Origin: Phycisphaerae bacterium
GTDB taxonomy: Bacteria > Planctomycetota > Phycisphaerae > Phycisphaerales > UBA5793
DNA: 64,000 nt
NCBI GenBank assembly: GCA_039794345.1
Contig: JBDIVQ010000001.1
Span: 31,072-95,071, forward strand
Direction of reading: 5' to 3'
Below the pieces are notes generated by a model. The model ran no database searches. It saw only the letters and a program-made list of their open reading frames with translations, and was not told where the DNA came from. Of this stretch, positions 56,457-64,000 are shown piece by piece. Position numbers and translations under genes: made by a program. The first letter of the stretch is position 1. The number at the start of each line of letters is the position of its first letter.

Positions 56457-56993
56457 ATGGACCGCATCGATCGCCTCACGACGCTCTTTCACCGGCGCTG
56501 GGCCTGCCCCGTCCTGGCGCACCTTCACCGCGATCAGGGCGCCAAGTTCATCACCCTCGTCAACGCCCTCGGCGCCAGCGCCGGCTCCGTGCGCCAGACC
56601 ATCGATGAACTCATTGACCTCGGCTGGGTGCGGCGCAATCCCGGCTACGGCCATCCGCTTCGTCCCGAGTACATCCTCACCCGGCGCGGCGAGCGGCTTG
56701 CCCCCGCCTGCGACCGCCTCGATCTCGCCACGCGCTCGCTGGCGGTGCAGGACGTGGCGCTGCGCAAGTGGTCCATGCCGGCGCTCTACGTCGTCGGGCC
56801 GGGGCCGACGCGCTTCAGCACGGTGGCCGACACGCTGCCCGGCATCACCGACCGCGCCGTGTCGCTCGCGCTCAGGGACCTGTCCACGGCGGAGATGATC
56901 GAGCGCCGCGTGCTCGCCGGCCCGCCGCCGGGCAGCGCTTACGGCGCCGCGCCGACGGGGGAGAAACTGCTGCCGATCCTCGACACGATCTGA
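56457..56993 (+). CDS. Tandem HxlR (DUF24) winged-helix regulator
   Basis: Two repeats: RRWACPVL...EYILT.RG..L and RKWSMPAL...AYG.AP.G..L.P.L; divergent from the VOC gene. Confidence 0.8.
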   Translation: MDRIDRLTTLFHRRWACPVLAHLHRDQGAKFITLVNALGASAGSVRQTIDELIDLGWVRRNPGYGHPLRPEYILTRRGERLAPACDRLDLATRSLAVQDVALRKWSMPALYVVGPGPTRFSTVADTLPGITDRAVSLALRDLSTAEMIERRVLAGPPPGSAYGAAPTGEKLLPILDTI

Positions 56994-58705
56994 TCCAGGG
57001 CCGCCAGCGCCGATTCGTTGTGCTCGTAGAACGTCGCAGGCTCAAGCGTCCAGCCGCGGCTGAGGCGCTTCTCTTCGCGGCGGAGCATCGAGAGCAAATA
57101 GCGCCCGATGAGCGGCGCCGCCAGCCGCGCCCGCCAGCCGAACTCCCGCTTGATCTCGCCGAGAATCGAGTTGATGCGTTCGGCAAGGCGGGCGTTGGTG
57201 CGGCGGAAGTACGCCCGCGCCGCCCACAGCGCCCCGGCGTAGGTGACGGCCAGGTCGCGCGACTCCCACGTGAAACGGGCCCGGATCCGCGCATCGGCGC
57301 ACTCCCGGTACCGCCGCCAGCCCTGGAGCACCGTCCGAGCGATGCGCACCACGCTCGGCCCGTTCACCTCGAAGTCGCGCTCGAACGCCCGCACGAGCAG
57401 TTCGCCCTCCACCCCCGGGGGCAGATGCGCGTGGCGGTAGTTGAAGCGCAACTGACCGTGAATGTCCGCCTCCTCGTACGCATCCGCCGGCAGCATCGTC
57501 CCCTTCTGCTGGTGCTCGCGGTAGAGCGGCGTGCCGGGAATCGGCGTGTAGAGCATGAACTGGTGAAACTCCGTATCGTGCTCCACCGAGTAGTCGATCG
57601 CCTCATCGATGTTTTCGAGCGTGTGGCTCTCCATCCCGATGATGCTCGAGCCCAGCACGCGAATGCCGTGCGACTGGAGCGTGCGCACCAGCGTGCGGGT
57701 GTCGGTATCGCGGAGTTTGGTGTAGGCGGCGTCCTTGCCTTCCAGGCCCATCCACACCCACGACACGCCGAGCCCGACAATCTCCTCGATCTCGTAGGCC
57801 CGCAGCGCGTTGGCGGAGGCGAAGAGATACAGCGACCATGCCTTGCCCTGCTCGCGCATGAGTTCGAGCAGGCGCAGCGCCCGCTTGCGGTGCAGGAGGA
57901 AGTTCTCATCCATCACGAAGAAGGAGCGGACGCTCATGTCGCGCTCCAGTCCGCACATCACCTCGAAGAGTTCATCGCCGGTGTGGTAGAAGTGGATGCA
58001 CGCCCCCTTGCCGCCGAACATCGCCGAAGTGGCGCAGAAGTTGCACCCCAGCGGGCAGCCGACCGAGGGGATGAGCACGGCGGCGACATCGCCGGGCTTC
58101 TCACGCAGGTTGATGCCCATGGTGCGCGAAGAGAAGCCCGAAGGAATGCGCGGATGGACGATCGGCCGGTCGGTCGCTTCGCCGAGGAAGCGGCGCATCC
58201 ACTCCACCCCCTCCCCGCGCACGATGTGGTCCGCGTCGATAATGCGGTCGAGGTCCGGGTAGTTCGCCACATGTCCGCCGACGATGAGCGTCGCCCGCGG
58301 CTGGTGTTCGCGCACCAGTTCGCACATGTGCCGCACCTTGGCGAGGTTGGGAATGATCGCGCCCAGGCCGATCACGTCGTAGCGCTTCGTGCGCAGTTCC
58401 TCGATGAAGCGCTCGCGCGTGGGGAAGTCCAGCAGCGTGCAGGGCGCTTCGATGTTGGCCTGGATGAGCATCATCCCCCACGAGCGGTGGAACATCCGCA
58501 GCGAAAACGACCGCTGCACGCGCGTCACCTGGTTGTGGTAGAGTTCCATCGGGTTGAGGCGCCGGCTGCCGTATTCGTCATCCTGCGCGTAGGGCCCGAA
58601 AACGCTCGACAGGAGAATGCGGGGGGCGCGATTGCCCCAGGGACGGTGGTTGGGTTGGTGAACGGGAGGAGCCTGGGTCGAAAGGCCGGGGGACGCGATC
58701 GTCAT
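56939..58705 (-). CDS. Cobalamin-binding radical SAM protein
   Basis: B12-binding domain (DVIGLG, LIVGG), GEG, CPLGCNFC cluster motif, MDENF, PIPGT; start MTIAS inferred. Confidence 0.85.
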   Translation of the reverse strand: MTIASPGLSTQAPPVHQPNHRPWGNRAPRILLSSVFGPYAQDDEYGSRRLNPMELYHNQVTRVQRSFSLRMFHRSWGMMLIQANIEAPCTLLDFPTRERFIEELRTKRYDVIGLGAIIPNLAKVRHMCELVREHQPRATLIVGGHVANYPDLDRIIDADHIVRGEGVEWMRRFLGEATDRPIVHPRIPSGFSSRTMGINLREKPGDVAAVLIPSVGCPLGCNFCATSAMFGGKGACIHFYHTGDELFEVMCGLERDMSVRSFFVMDENFLLHRKRALRLLELMREQGKAWSLYLFASANALRAYEIEEIVGLGVSWVWMGLEGKDAAYTKLRDTDTRTLVRTLQSHGIRVLGSSIIGMESHTLENIDEAIDYSVEHDTEFHQFMLYTPIPGTPLYREHQQKGTMLPADAYEEADIHGQLRFNYRHAHLPPGVEGELLVRAFERDFEVNGPSVVRIARTVLQGWRRYRECADARIRARFTWESRDLAVTYAGALWAARAYFRRTNARLAERINSILGEIKREFGWRARLAAPLIGRYLLSMLRREEKRLSRGWTLEPATFYEHNESALAALDQIVSRIGSSFSPVGAAP

Positions 58706-59048
58706 CGAACAACTGCTTTCAGTAGGGCCTGCCTCCGAGGGAGCAAGCGCGGGTGATCGGAGCAGCGCGGGGGCGTGACAGTCCGAACCCGCAGGAGAAC
58801 CAGATGATTGTATCCACTTCAAGGCGCGGGCGTCCGGAGCCCGGGCATGCGCGTCCCGCCCGTACAAACCGGCAAGCGCAGCCGAAGCCAGGCGCAACCG
58901 GAGCATGGGCGTCACGCACGTGCGCACGTGGTCCTTCCGTCAGGTACGGCCGGCTGAAAGGCTCAGCGATTGCGGATGGGAGGGCGTGGGCGCGAAGTCG
59001 TTACACGGGTAGACATGATCGCGGGATGTAGCGAGACGGCGCCGCGTT

Positions 59049-60404
59049 CTACTCAAACGTCCACGTTAGAGTGTGACTGATCTCGCACTCGATCGGTGCG
59101 ACGGCCTGGAGGCGCACTGTGCGGCCGCGCGCCGCGAGGGGGACGTTGAGTGTGATGGTCGCCACGCCGTTCGCGTCGGCCCGCACGGCCGGCAGCGCCC
59201 GTGGATCGCGGATGATGAGCGTGCCGCCGGGGCAGGATGGGCGGATCTTCTGCGCCCCCTCGTGCGTGCCGTAGGCGAGGAGGACTCGCTGGTTGGGTTG
59301 GAGTCCGGCGACGGTGATTGTGTTCATCGTTCCCGCGCGGCCGGGCACGGGATCGGACATCTCGAAGAGATAGGGCGTGACGAGGAAGCCCCGTTCGCGG
59401 CCATCGTCGTACTCGCCAAAGACGGCCATCTGACCGGCGTCGTTCAGATCCTTCGAACTGGCGAGTCGGAGGCCAGGGTGCCTCGGTATCCAGTCATTCA
59501 AGTTGAACAGGACGAAGTCCACACCACGGGGCTCCCAGACCACGGCGTGTTCTTGCCCGTTGGCGCAGCGTGGGTCCGGATTGGACTCGCCCGCGATCAG
59601 ACCGCCGCTGTTGATCGCGAAGGCGGAGGATGAGCACTGGCCCAGGGACGGCAATTCCGTGCGCTCGCCATTGAACCACCTGAAAGGGCCGACTCCCTCC
59701 AGGTGCGCGACCACCTCGTCAAAGTGATTGATGTCGCTCGCGCCTCCGGCCGCATCCAGCGGCTCGCCGCCCACATCAATCATCTGTCCGTCCCGCCACA
59801 GCGTCGGTCGGGACACACCCTGCTGATTCTGAGCCACGCCGACGGCGTGGCCGAGGGCATTGATCGGTCCGAGGGAGCTTCTCGGGCCGCCCATCTGCAT
59901 GGCCTCGGTGCCGCGCCACATCGTCGCGTAGTCGCTTCCGCTGTTGCAGTAGCCGCCGATCTGCGTCAGCGGCCAGGGCTGGTTGTCCGGCGAGTGGGCA
60001 CTGCCGCGCGTCATTCCGGGCAGCAGGTCCAACACATGCGTACCGCTCTGTGCCGTCCAGACGATGGGATGGAACACGGAAGACTCAAGCAATGTCGCTC
60101 GTCCGGTCACCACGCCTCCGTCACCGATTCCATTGACCATTGGTCGCTGGTAACCCTCCGGCGCTGGTATCACGATCATCTCGCCGTTGATCCAGACAAA
60201 CGGCGTGGAAAACAGACTGCCGGATTTGCCGACGACGCGGGCGAAGTCATCGATACCTTGCACGTTCGAGGTCGTCTGCCCCGGCGCGACTCCCAAGGAG
60301 GTCACTTCGTAGCCGGTCACGCCCGCAGGCTGGGCCATGACCGCGAGATCGAAAGTCAATCCGCAGAGAGTGGCGGCCGCGAACACGATGCGAATACGCG
60401 TCAT
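59049..60404 (-). CDS. Secreted HAF-repeat (beta-propeller-like) protein with C-terminal ~100-aa domain
   Basis: Signal peptide; repeats of type A.GIN..G.VVG...A..W..G.M..L; C-terminal PNQRV...DANG...LQA domain. Confidence 0.8.
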   Translation of the reverse strand: MTRIRIVFAAATLCGLTFDLAVMAQPAGVTGYEVTSLGVAPGQTTSNVQGIDDFARVVGKSGSLFSTPFVWINGEMIVIPAPEGYQRPMVNGIGDGGVVTGRATLLESSVFHPIVWTAQSGTHVLDLLPGMTRGSAHSPDNQPWPLTQIGGYCNSGSDYATMWRGTEAMQMGGPRSSLGPINALGHAVGVAQNQQGVSRPTLWRDGQMIDVGGEPLDAAGGASDINHFDEVVAHLEGVGPFRWFNGERTELPSLGQCSSSAFAINSGGLIAGESNPDPRCANGQEHAVVWEPRGVDFVLFNLNDWIPRHPGLRLASSKDLNDAGQMAVFGEYDDGRERGFLVTPYLFEMSDPVPGRAGTMNTITVAGLQPNQRVLLAYGTHEGAQKIRPSCPGGTLIIRDPRALPAVRADANGVATITLNVPLAARGRTVRLQAVAPIECEISHTLTWTFE

Positions 60405-60550
60405 GGAAGGATCTTCCTCCAACGACTCGGTCTGCAACGGAGTATACCAGATCGCCGTCATTCCAAGCCCGGTCTGACAGGTGAAATCAGCAGGGAAACC
60501 AACCTGAAACTGTCCCCTCGGGTAATCCGATCAGTCTCAGGCGCAGCGCG

Positions 60551-60727
60551 TCGCTGCTCACCGTCGTGCAGGGCCGGCACAACCAGAGCATGCTGGACCA
60601 CGGCGTTCTGCTCAAGGCGCACCGCCTCGACCCGAGCGTCGGCGGCGACCTGCTCGTCGGCGACCAACACCTGCACTTCGCCCGCGATGCCGTCCTGCGC
60701 CTGACGTTCGAGCGCGAGGGGCAGTAG
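60551..60727 (+). pseudogene. 3'-terminal remnant of an unidentified gene
   Basis: 58 codons plus stop with strong GC3 bias (SLLTVVQGRHNQSMLDHGVLLKAHRL...RLTFEREGQ*); upstream in-frame stop at 60482 and no credible start with RBS. Confidence 0.4.
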
Positions 60728-60916
60728 GTCAGTTCTTCTTGCGGTCGATGAGATGAGCGACGGGAGGGGGGACATTCCGGCCCGTCGCATCGATTGAGCG
60801 GCGGTCTCCCTGGACCCATGCAATTCGTCGTCAGGAACCCACCGTCCGCAACTGCGGCACTCATGAAGCCTGCGGATTCCCTGTGGCGTGAAGATACGGG
60901 CTTTCGAGTGGTCGAG

Positions 60917-60955
60917 AAAAGCAACCGCCCCGCAGGCTCGGGCCTGCGGGGCGGT
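60917..60955 (-). terminator. Intrinsic terminator of the S8 protease gene
   Basis: 14-bp perfect stem ACCGCCCCGCAGGC/GCCTGCGGGGCGGT followed by TGCTTTT on the minus strand. Confidence 0.75.
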
Positions 60956-60993
60956 GTGTCGGTCGGACGAACGTGTGAGTCAGCGTCGGTCGA

Positions 60994-62760
60994 TCACTCG
61001 ATGACCTGCTCGATCACGTTGGACTTGCGCTGGAACTGGGCGGCCTGCATCCAGACGCGCGTGCCCTGCGAGTTGGGCGGAAGGCGCTTGCGGAGGAGGG
61101 CGTAGCCGTTCGCATCGGTCGTGCGGATGCCCGCGAGGGCGGGGTTGGCGAGATCGATGGTGACGTCCAGTTGCGAGATGTAGGTGGAGCCGGTGCCCTG
61201 CACGCTATAGATGAAGGCGACGGTCTCGTTGGGGTTGGCGCGAAAGACTTCGGCATCGCCGTTGACGCCGGCGACCCAGCGCGAGGCGGTGAGGCGGATG
61301 GGGATGTCGCCGGTCATGGCGGCGACGACGGCCTCGTAGGCGTCAACCATGCCCCAGCCGTAACTGTTGTCCTCGCCCTGCGTGCCGAGGTCGAAGGCGG
61401 TGTCATAGATGATCTGCTTGACCGCCTCGATGCTGATGTCGGGATTGACTTCGCGCATGAGGCAGACGACGCCGTTGATGTGAGGCGAGGCCATGGAGGT
61501 GCCGCTGAGGTTGCCGTAGGACCCGCCGGGCATGGAGGAGCGAACGTTGACGCCGGGGGCGGAGATGTCGGGCTTGATGGCCGGCTGCCCGTTGGGCGTG
61601 CAGTTCGTCGGTCCGCGCGAGGAGAAGGAGGCGATGGGCCAACTGGGGTTGTTGGCGTCCACCGCGGCGACGGCCATGGTGCGATAGTCATCAGTGGCGC
61701 GGTCCGCGGGACGGCGCAGCCCCGAGGTGCCTTCGTTGCCGGCGGAGAAGATGATCAGAGTGCCCGCGGCCTCACAGGCGTCGAGGTGATTCCAGAAGGT
61801 CTGATCGCAGGGCGGATAGCCGTGACCCGTCACCAGGCCCCAGGAGTTGGAGCAGGCGGCGGGAACGTCCCAGTTCGTGTTCGGGTCGCCATCCGGGTCG
61901 ATGAGCCACTGGAAGGCAAGAAGGGAGTCGGAGACGGTGCGCTGGATGCTGACGCGGTCGATGACGGCGGCGTGGATCCAGATGGCGCCGGGGGCGGTGC
62001 CGACTTCGTCGCCGGGCGCGCCGCCGCAGACGGTTCCCATGGTGTGGGTGCCGTGGCTGCCGAAGGCGGTCGGGAAGCGGGTGTTGGTCACCGGATCAAA
62101 CCATGCCCACTCCGGATGGCCGTTGTAGCGCGGGTCGGCAACGCCGGCCCAGCGATCGCGAAGGGCGGGATGGTTGCCGTCCACGCCGGTGTCGAGGGTG
62201 GCGGTGAGCACTCCGTTGCCGTGCACCTGGAACTCGCTCCAGACTTCCGGAGCGCGGATGGCGACCTGGCCGATCTCGGGGGCGTCAAGCCCGCCCTGGT
62301 CGAGTTCAACCTCGTTCGCATCCACGGGGCGGATGAGTTCGATCGGGTAGTTGAAGTAGACGCGGAGCACGTCGCCGCGCTGGGCGAGTTCGATGATCTC
62401 GCGCCTGGTGCCGTCCACGCGGATGACGTTGGAGATCCAGAAGGGCTGATAGTCGGCGATGCGTCCGGCGTCCTTGAGTGCGGCAAGGTGGTCGAGAAGA
62501 GCGCCCTGGGTCGTCGCGGCCTTCTCCTGCAGCGTGGTCACGACGAGGCGGTGCCGCTCCTGAAGGTTCAACTGCACGCGCTCGAACTGGCGGCTCATGT
62601 CCGCGATGTTGACCTGATCGTTCAGGTAGACGAGGGTGGACAGCACATGGTTGTCCGGGGTGTTGCGGATGATCCGGACGAGATCGGGGTCGATCTCGCC
62701 GGCGAGGGCCGGGGCCGCGAGGACCGCCGACACTGCTCCGATGCAGGCCAGTCGTTTCAT
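60994..62760 (-). CDS. Secreted S8 subtilase (bacillopeptidase F-like) with C-terminal ~100-aa domain
   Basis: Signal peptide, propeptide, triad LDTGVD / HGTHTMGT / GTSMASPH. Confidence 0.92.
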   Translation of the reverse strand: MKRLACIGAVSAVLAAPALAGEIDPDLVRIIRNTPDNHVLSTLVYLNDQVNIADMSRQFERVQLNLQERHRLVVTTLQEKAATTQGALLDHLAALKDAGRIADYQPFWISNVIRVDGTRREIIELAQRGDVLRVYFNYPIELIRPVDANEVELDQGGLDAPEIGQVAIRAPEVWSEFQVHGNGVLTATLDTGVDGNHPALRDRWAGVADPRYNGHPEWAWFDPVTNTRFPTAFGSHGTHTMGTVCGGAPGDEVGTAPGAIWIHAAVIDRVSIQRTVSDSLLAFQWLIDPDGDPNTNWDVPAACSNSWGLVTGHGYPPCDQTFWNHLDACEAAGTLIIFSAGNEGTSGLRRPADRATDDYRTMAVAAVDANNPSWPIASFSSRGPTNCTPNGQPAIKPDISAPGVNVRSSMPGGSYGNLSGTSMASPHINGVVCLMREVNPDISIEAVKQIIYDTAFDLGTQGEDNSYGWGMVDAYEAVVAAMTGDIPIRLTASRWVAGVNGDAEVFRANPNETVAFIYSVQGTGSTYISQLDVTIDLANPALAGIRTTDANGYALLRKRLPPNSQGTRVWMQAAQFQRKSNVIEQVIE

Positions 62761-63222: not shown

Positions 63223-64000
63223 ATGAGAGGATCGCAAGTCACCCGCGCCCTTTTTGCCGCCCTGTTCTTTGCGGCTTCGTTGCCTGCGCTCGGACAACCC
63301 GACGGCGGGGGGCCGCTGCTCGACAGCGCCTGGCGGGCGTTCGAGACGGGGTACTTCCCGACCATGTCGCCCATCGCGATGGCGCATGCCGATCTGAACG
63401 GCGACGGCCGCATCGAAGTCGTTGTCGCCCAGGAGTACTACGGCGAACCGGGTCTGGTCGTCATGACCAATCTCGGCGAGGGCGCCTTCCAGGCGACCTC
63501 GCGCTACAGCGTGCCTTACGGCGACGATCCGGCCGATATCGTCCTGAGAGACATCGACAGCGATGGGCATCTCGATGCCATCGCCACCATCCCCAATCAG
63601 CACAGCCAGGGCAACAGAGTTTACTGGTGGCACGGCAACGGCAACGGCACCTTCGCCAACCAGTATCGGAGCGTGATTGTCGGCCCCGGCCCGATCGGAC
63701 TCGTGGTGGGGGACTTCACGGGAGATGGATTCCCCGACCTCGTTACGGCGGACGGCGATTTCTACGGCACGGGCACGACGGTGTCGCTGATGGTGCACAA
63801 CGGCCAGAGCGGCAATCAGGTTGCCTTCGCGGCGCCGCGCCCCTTCACCGCCGGCGCCAATGTGCAGCGCGTCGCCGCGGCCGATCTGGACGGCGACGGC
63901 GATCTGGATCTCCTCGTCGGCCGCGCCGACGCCTCCGGCAACGCGGTGCTGCTCAACACCGGTTCAGGCTTCACGGCGCCGGTGTACTACCAGCATGCGC
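63223..64000 (+). CDS. Secreted FG-GAP/VCBS repeat protein (runs off window end)
   Basis: Signal peptide MRGSQVTRALFAALFFAASLPALG; repeats ADLNGDG, DIDSDGHLD, GDFTGDGFPDLVT, DLDGDGDLDLLV; no stop before 64000, so absent from the ORF track. Confidence 0.85.
   Translation, partial: MRGSQVTRALFAALFFAASLPALGQPDGGGPLLDSAWRAFETGYFPTMSPIAMAHADLNGDGRIEVVVAQEYYGEPGLVVMTNLGEGAFQATSRYSVPYGDDPADIVLRDIDSDGHLDAIATIPNQHSQGNRVYWWHGNGNGTFANQYRSVIVGPGPIGLVVGDFTGDGFPDLVTADGDFYGTGTTVSLMVHNGQSGNQVAFAAPRPFTAGANVQRVAAADLDGDGDLDLLVGRADASGNAVLLNTGSGFTAPVYYQHA

Follow-up and report, generated by a model that had tools for sequence, protein, structure and literature searches.

C-terminal tags such as LPXTG, PEP-CTERM, the C-terminal domain (CTD) of the type IX secretion system (T9SS) and dockerin have each led to the discovery of dedicated cell-surface machinery. 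Here we consider a C-terminal domain, hereafter the tag domain, that closes two neighbouring genes for a HAF-repeat protein and an S8 subtilase in a 64,000-nucleotide stretch of a Phycisphaerae bacterium (C1:31072-95071, contig JBDIVQ010000001.1 of assembly GCA_039794345.1). We refer to this whole stretch as the window; the assembly from which it comes (G000) comprises 4.06 Mb in 258 contigs and is 97% complete. With moderate confidence, we regard the tail as an uncatalogued, modular tag at the C-terminus with which one Phycisphaerales family localises Sec-exported proteins, and favour docking or anchoring over an export signal.

Among the described systems, the type A CTD of the T9SS (Por_Secre_tail, PF18962/TIGR04183), known from Bacteroidota and other phyla of the Fibrobacteres-Chlorobi-Bacteroidetes (FCB) group, resembles the tag domain in several respects. 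It is an immunoglobulin (Ig)-like beta-sandwich of ~80-100 residues that forms the very end of proteins with a signal peptide and highly varied passengers; tens to hundreds of proteins per genome carry it, and on orthologues of the window S8 protease it stands where the tag domain stands here. The two differ in that 46 tag-domain members were without a match to PF18962, PF13585 (CHU_C), PF13860 or TIGR04183 at E<=0.1, in a search that does detect genuine T9SS CTDs where S8 orthologues have them (E=1e-14). They differ also in that the SprA translocon is absent from the tag-domain genomes searched, and in that the tag domain has conserved cysteines as well as stand-alone and tandem copies.

Dockerin-type modules (PF00404, and NF041540 for the GC-type of Planctomycetota) are likewise C-terminal on many unrelated exported proteins; they number dozens per genome in sister families that lack the tag domain, and are found on S8 orthologues too. 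The dockerins of clostridial cellulosomes dock non-covalently. Dockerins are, however, duplicated calcium-binding loop-helix modules of ~60 residues, whereas the tag domain is predicted to be an all-beta sandwich of ~105 residues; no PF00404 or NF041540 hidden Markov model (HMM) match was obtained in the 46 members, and the canonical cohesin partners of dockerins are nearly absent from the order. PEP-CTERM/exosortase and IPTL-CTERM are similar to the tag domain as lineage-restricted C-terminal tags on many exported proteins; IPTL-CTERM occurs on one S8 orthologue, and HAF-repeat proteins are classic PEP-CTERM carriers (TIGR02913 description). Those tags consist of a short motif, a transmembrane helix and a basic tail, with processing by a membrane transpeptidase, whereas the tag domain appears folded and soluble, has no hydrophobic anchor, and closes with a beta-strand and then E, P or Q. 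No PEP-CTERM-like tail was picked up in the genome by a regular-expression scan, exosortase itself not being searched for. Finally, the neocarzinostatin and C-1027 apoproteins (PF00960) are small secreted Ig-like sandwiches of ~110 residues with disulfides and a Foldseek template modelling (TM) score of ~0.5 to the tag domain. They differ from it in that all scores lie below any family threshold and in that they act on their own, in actinomycetes, as carriers of enediyne chromophores and do not form the tail of a larger protein.

The shared C-terminal domain and its predicted fold

The window genes that carry the tag domain, and the parts of them that matter here, are as follows.

59049..60404, minus strand: HAF-repeat exported protein with the tag domain at its C-terminus; 451 aa from MTRIRIVF, ending ...TWTFE; NCBIfam TIGR02913 (HAF_rpt), E=6e-06
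60333..60404, minus strand: predicted Sec signal peptide of the HAF protein (MTRIRIVFAAATLCGLTFDLAVMA), with a basic N-region, hydrophobic core and small-residue site by eye; also positive in a crude detector
59052..59408, minus strand: tag domain (CTD) of the HAF protein; HMM envelope equal to the last 119 residues, core ~104 aa; family HMM independent E-value (i-E) 5e-26
60994..62760, minus strand: S8 subtilase ending in the tag domain; 588 aa from MKRLACIG, ending ...EQVIE; Pfam Peptidase_S8 PF00082, E=1e-40, residues 181-470
62701..62760, minus strand: predicted Sec signal peptide of the S8 protease (MKRLACIGAVSAVLAAPALA), from sequence and the crude detector
60997..61347, minus strand: tag domain (CTD) of the S8 protease; HMM envelope equal to the last 117 residues, folded core from ~residue 17; family HMM i-E 9e-24
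63223..64000, plus strand: 5' part of the gene for an FG-GAP repeat protein, which continues beyond the window end; its tag domain lies at contig C1:96568-96894

Compared directly with each other, the HAF and S8 tails showed a marginal similarity (two-sequence BLASTP, 30% identity over 79 residues, E=0.015), and family-level searches were therefore used to establish homology. When either tail was run with phmmer against the six-frame open reading frames (ORFs) of the whole genome, dozens of matches were returned, nearly all at the ORF end; with the HAF tail ~50 terminal matches had E<1e-3. Many ORFs were matched by both tails, for example one on C36 (8e-13 and 7e-07) and one on C194 (9e-06 and 1e-16). 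Judged by these searches, the two window tails are one domain family, with their homology running through intermediates.

An iterated HMM converged on 201 ORFs in the genome, 198 of them at i-E<=1e-10, and gave 0 matches on reversed sequences (best i-E 0.003). In 200 of the 201 copies the domain ended <=4 residues from the stop codon, and in 183 it stopped exactly at the model end with no residue after it; the HAF copy, for instance, has its envelope at 375-493 within a 493-residue stop-to-stop frame. The final residue, right after the last strand, was E in 62 members, P in 59 and Q in 22. The family consensus reads ..L.V.G.CPG..G..V.F.W.GATPG..VAL.YS...G...IPG..(C).G..L.L.......A.AD..G.A.....VP..ACG..YLQA.D...C.TSNVV.I., with near-invariant HMM positions G50, G80, Q99, S109 and N110. 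Three conserved cysteines (model positions 20, 93 and 106) were all present in 102 members and all missing from 52, and a fourth was seen only in the consensus of the alignment of 46 diverse members (A1). The S8 tail belongs to the Cys-free type, and in the HAF tail a Cys falls on or close to the third of the three model positions.

The lone non-terminal copy in the genome (C81:1630-2361, minus strand) has behind it a conserved extension of ~105 residues that contains 8 cysteines (library proteins P0041 and P0112). Among 201 genomes of a phylum sample this extension was found only in G000; as a general partner of the tag domain it was rejected, because it is not common to the other domain-bearing genomes of the sample.

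Scans against Pfam and NCBIfam assigned the window tails to no family and gave no model match at E<=0.1 for any of the 46 diverse members, carbohydrate-binding module (CBM) families of Pfam included. AlphaFold2 run on A1 (S8-type tail) returned a mean predicted local distance difference test (pLDDT) score of 94.2 with nine strands over E18-E115, and a stand-alone copy of the Cys type reached a mean pLDDT of 83, with 85-97 in the ten-residue blocks that cover the domain. The models confidently predict an independently folding Ig-like beta-sandwich of ~105 residues. When the two models were compared with the PDB using Foldseek, no convincing match emerged: only generic Ig, fibronectin type III (FnIII) or nanobody folds were retrieved, at E>=3e-3, with TM<=0.55 by query length and <=0.61 by target length. 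T9SS CTD structures were not among the best 50 matches. A porphyran-binding CBM and CBM56 appeared among the generic Ig/FnIII matches at a weak E=0.02-0.05 (TM<=0.46 by target and <=0.35 by query). The sole sequence-level hint was to the C-1027/neocarzinostatin apoproteins, with a sub-threshold PDB profile match of E=0.007 (domain i-E 0.36); the gathering score of PF00960 was not reached (best 12.4 bits against a cut-off of 25; Pfam E=0.16).

Carriers, cassettes and distribution

A simple GC3-based gene call (GC3, GC content at third codon positions) gave ~3270 genes, of which 184 (5.6%) carry the tag domain; 77 of these carriers adjoin another. Signal-peptide-like N-termini, called by a crude home-made detector, were present on 139 of the 174 carriers not cut by a contig end (~80%), as compared with 800 of 3023 other genes (odds ratio 11, p=8e-46), and carriers make up ~15% of all proteins with such an N-terminus. 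The passengers of 178 carriers fell into 71 BLAST clusters, the 20 biggest of which were annotated by scanning representatives. HAF repeats were the most numerous (22 carriers, including the HAF protein of the window and its paralogues), followed by S8 subtilases (16), SBBP propellers with DUF7948 (12), three FG-GAP clusters (8, 7 and 6), beta-helix proteins (5), and M14 carboxypeptidases, Kelch and BNR proteins (4 each); many carriers had passengers without annotation. No choice-of-anchor domain was found in ten Pfam-negative carriers. The FG-GAP gene that starts in the window is itself a carrier: its whole ORF (C1:94123-96897, 924 aa) has the tag domain at residues 813-924 (i-E 3e-31) and was the best match in the genome, and the gene after it (C1:96982-99639, outside the window) also ends in the domain. 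A 662-aa ORF at 56939-58927 (minus strand) lies directly beside the HAF gene on its low-coordinate side.

Much of what the sequence-only reading had put forward was borne out by these data. Its two neighbouring proteins with unrelated passengers do have a common C-terminal domain at the places it gave, the many copies and the signal peptides that it expected on carriers were found, the FG-GAP gene ends in the domain just outside the window, and the domain is not a known Pfam module.

The domain also behaves as a unit at the DNA level. When tails are compared, 106 of 178 carriers have their closest match on a member of another passenger family. In five unrelated genes on five contigs (C98, C59, C4, C37 and C140), the last ~300 nt are 85-100% identical in 60-nt windows, and identity drops to ~0.3 directly upstream of the domain start (…GGFNIRLSGQCPG…) and directly after the stop codon. 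Since identity is bounded this sharply at both ends, the data show that it was precisely the segment encoding the domain that underwent recent recombination or gene conversion.

Not every copy is joined to a passenger. About 11 proteins in the genome consist of a signal peptide and the tag domain alone, and a relative, the metagenome-assembled genome (MAG) KLAP200, holds an operon of four paralogous stand-alone genes of this design (L131:8001-9620; 124-128 aa, spacers of 25-40 nt). Judged from best BLAST hits and a common 449-residue downstream gene, the apparent counterpart in G000 is split at contig ends (C85:6-404 and C169:3-1686). Where relatives have long contigs, 5-13 carriers follow one another in islands (L135-L140; G205:C5, G210:C11, G209:C2), the G209 island having 13 carriers within 30 kb. 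Such island repeats probably explain why the assembly of the present genome breaks at carrier genes.

The S8 protease offers a view of the same passenger with different tails. Its closest orthologues (78-95% identity) come from Phycisphaerales or Planctomycetota MAGs, and only the five closest end in the tag domain, which is 68-99% identical to that of the window protein and about as conserved as the protease prodomain. In Zixibacteria and Ignavibacteria, orthologues end in Por_Secre_tail (E=1e-14), with identities in the protease part of 39-40% (L084, L085) and of 67% over a partial match (L077). One uncultured bacterium has an orthologue with IPTL-CTERM at its end (27.5 bits, the cut-off being 20.5). 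Among other Planctomycetota, many orthologues close with duplicated, dockerin-like DxNGDG..D loops, which give weak matches to NF041540 ('GC-type dockerin') and often have a choice-of-anchor J domain before them. Yet another type, in other Phycisphaerae MAGs (L049:4135-4836, L051, L053, L055, L070), is an unannotated Cys-rich tail in which Cys repeats of the CPQPGACCFDDGTC type precede a terminal domain of ~85 residues that closes with ...DPDCTNTVTAQCP; this tail had no Pfam or NCBIfam match, nor any match in 41 relatives in a search run without a positive control.

Two further observations on S8 relatives were made. A 95%-identical copy of the window gene, tag domain included, is present in a MAG labelled Vicinamibacteraceae (Acidobacteriota; L041, WYBR01000124.1); this label is probably wrong, as the MAG looks like a Phycisphaerales bin. 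Archaeal MAGs (L059-L065 and L054, Thermoplasmatales; L091-L117, Poseidoniales) contain S8 proteases 53-65% identical to planctomycete ones, with PKD tails in both of those scanned (L059, L062). These archaeal copies reflect transfer between domains of life or else contamination during binning.

A profile search of 1.84 billion protein cluster representatives returned 7006 at E<=1e-3 and 3583 at E<=1e-10. Among the best 150 of these 7006, a copy ended <=6 residues from the C-terminus in 145, and ~8 look like complete stand-alone proteins. Across the phylum, 27 of 201 sampled genomes contained the tag domain. All 11 genomes of its own family (f1) did so, with 87 to >=110 copies each, and none of the 30 genomes from five sister families of the same order had a single copy. 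Dockerin-type tails showed the complementary pattern, with dozens in most of these 30 domain-free genomes. Matches to Dockerin_1 (PF00404) numbered 2-10 per genome in the own family, as against 46-91 in sister family f3, 24-80 in f88, 28-31 in f89 and up to 64 in several f2 and f4 genomes. A regular-expression scan found no C-terminal dockerin pair in the genome itself. The canonical cohesin PF00963 was absent from G000 and the whole of its family and present in 2 of 41 relatives only. Sister-family genomes such as G041, G068, G155, G189 and G213 thus combine 24-91 dockerin-type modules each with a cohesin in only 2 of the 41.

Localisation tag or another role

A localisation tag is in our view the best explanation because several lines of evidence come together: the scale of the family, the terminal position of the domain, the export signals, the diversity of passengers, the swapping of tags among orthologues and the complementarity with dockerins. 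Docking is favoured over a translocation signal because sister families have dockerin-type tails instead and because stand-alone and tandem copies exist; the internal copies and the lack of a T9SS-like machine argue in the same direction. It is on these grounds that we infer docking or anchoring.

The alternative that comes nearest to this takes the tail to be a signal that marks cargo for an outer-membrane secretion system not yet described; like the T9SS CTD, the tail would be recognised in the periplasm, translocated and possibly cleaved off. The extreme terminal position in 200 of 201 copies (183 without any residue after the model end) would be expected of such a signal, and the Ig-like fold of ~100 aa is of T9SS-CTD-like size and class. 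It is further consistent with such a signal that the same S8 passenger has a T9SS CTD in Zixibacteria and Ignavibacteria, and that cargo proteins number in the hundreds per genome. Nevertheless, the SprA/Sov translocon (TIGR04189) was absent from G000 and from 10 own-family and 10 sister-family genomes, other T9SS components not being searched for. This negative is validated by positive controls, as four Zixibacteria/Ignavibacteria genomes holding the Por_Secre_tail orthologues scored 462-583 bits. Neither Por_Secre_tail nor CHU_C was matched in the 46 members, cargo-free stand-alone, tandem and internal copies would be odd for an export signal, and no candidate machinery was found, so that we consider this explanation unlikely. 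The sequence-only reading had ascribed to the domain a role like that of T9SS CTDs or PEP-CTERM. This analogy gains strength from the S8 orthologues with Por_Secre_tail, IPTL-CTERM or dockerin-like tails; a pure export signal fits less well, since stand-alone copies agree better with a docking or binding module.

Binding could also be directed outwards, with the tail acting as a ligand-binding or adhesive module (CBM- or lectin-like) for an external substrate such as marine biofilm polymers, and not for the cell's own envelope. A beta-sandwich of typical CBM size, the strong conservation in the HMM of the polar residues Q99, S109 and N110, the internal, tandem and stand-alone secreted copies, and the closest relatives, which are MAGs with isolate names suggesting plastic or seawater samples, would all suit this idea. 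Yet no CBM family of Pfam was matched, structural matches to CBMs were weak, and the passengers are mostly proteases and beta-propeller or adhesin-like repeats, with no glycoside-hydrolase family among those identified. The terminal position, the pattern of one tag per lineage complementary to dockerins and the exchange of tags on orthologues are, moreover, typical of localisation tags, and we think such an outward role quite improbable. We give even less credence to a passive structural Ig spacer or stabiliser without a common partner, multiplied by duplication and homogenised by gene conversion. The generic Ig-like fold, which has no specific PDB match and only the weak likeness to C-1027/neocarzinostatin (E=0.007), would allow for it, as would the many paralogous carriers (clusters of 22, 16 and 12). 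It is at odds with the 71 unrelated passenger families and the precisely bounded cassette, with the all-or-none distribution by family and with the 68-99% identity between orthologues. Nor does a spacer need to be the last domain, as this one is in 200 of 201 copies in this genome.

Several observations weigh against the localisation tag that we favour. Searches of gene neighbourhoods and of enriched families found no receptor, peptidase or transporter. At 20 loci in 14 lower-copy genomes, Ser/Thr kinases, AcrB pumps and other cargo recurred beside the copies, and were rejected as machinery. The families enriched beside cargo genes in the present genome (kinases, a sulfatase, Bac_transf sugar transferases, pseudopilins and two unannotated secreted families) included none that was convincing, and the cargo islands of long-contig relatives were pure cargo arrays with no conserved non-cargo gene. 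The sequence-only reading had anticipated co-occurring transporter or peptidase genes; this was not borne out, and a surface-targeting route is one that we infer. Its expectation that the domain is always C-terminal held for this genome but failed elsewhere: at the same 20 loci, 5 of 22 copies were N-terminal or internal, and 38 of the best 150 library representatives had 2-3 copies, either in tandem or with one internal and one terminal. Because of the N-terminal and internal copies in lower-copy Planctomycetota, the fold is not intrinsically a tag and is older than its use as a terminal one. The crude signal-peptide detector, furthermore, was also positive in 26% of other genes. Lastly, since canonical cohesins are nearly absent from the order, they do not account for the partner of the dockerin-like tails of the sister families, on which the dockerin analogy rests.

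Proposed mode of action and meaning

If the tail is a localisation tag, its operation could be pictured as follows. The N-terminal signal peptide, as suggested by its sequence features, would carry the protein across the inner membrane, after which the tail, to judge from its conserved cysteines and the confident fold prediction, would fold in the oxidising periplasm or outside the cell. It may then bind one common receptor, by which passengers as different as proteases and adhesin-like proteins of the beta-propeller and beta-helix kinds would be kept at the cell envelope or in the matrix outside the cell. An envelope protein or a surface polysaccharide specific to the lineage could act as this receptor, and so could further copies of the tag domain. 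Within the genome, the module spreads by recombination or gene conversion as a cassette bounded by the domain start and the stop codon, a boundary read directly from the DNA.

A bolder picture, which we offer as speculative and regard as doubtful, is that of an undescribed surface-display or secretion route with the sandwich as its address label in this family and patchily in other Planctomycetota. Labels would then be interchangeable among families of the order, with the tag domain in one and dockerin-type tails in others, and the conserved operon of four stand-alone genes might encode a matrix or scaffold in which tagged cargo docks by contacts between domains.

What is new here is an unnamed domain that closes ~5-6% of the genes in a widespread uncultured family of marine planctomycetes, that occurs in at least 7000 public protein clusters, and that is matched by no Pfam or NCBIfam model. 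The bounded DNA cassette shows how such tags pass between genes. The contrast between families, with >100 copies on one side and none on the other, mirrored by dockerin-type tails, makes phylogenetic profiling a direct way to search for the receptor. Naming the tag domain would better annotate thousands of 'hypothetical' proteins and define the surface proteome of these bacteria.

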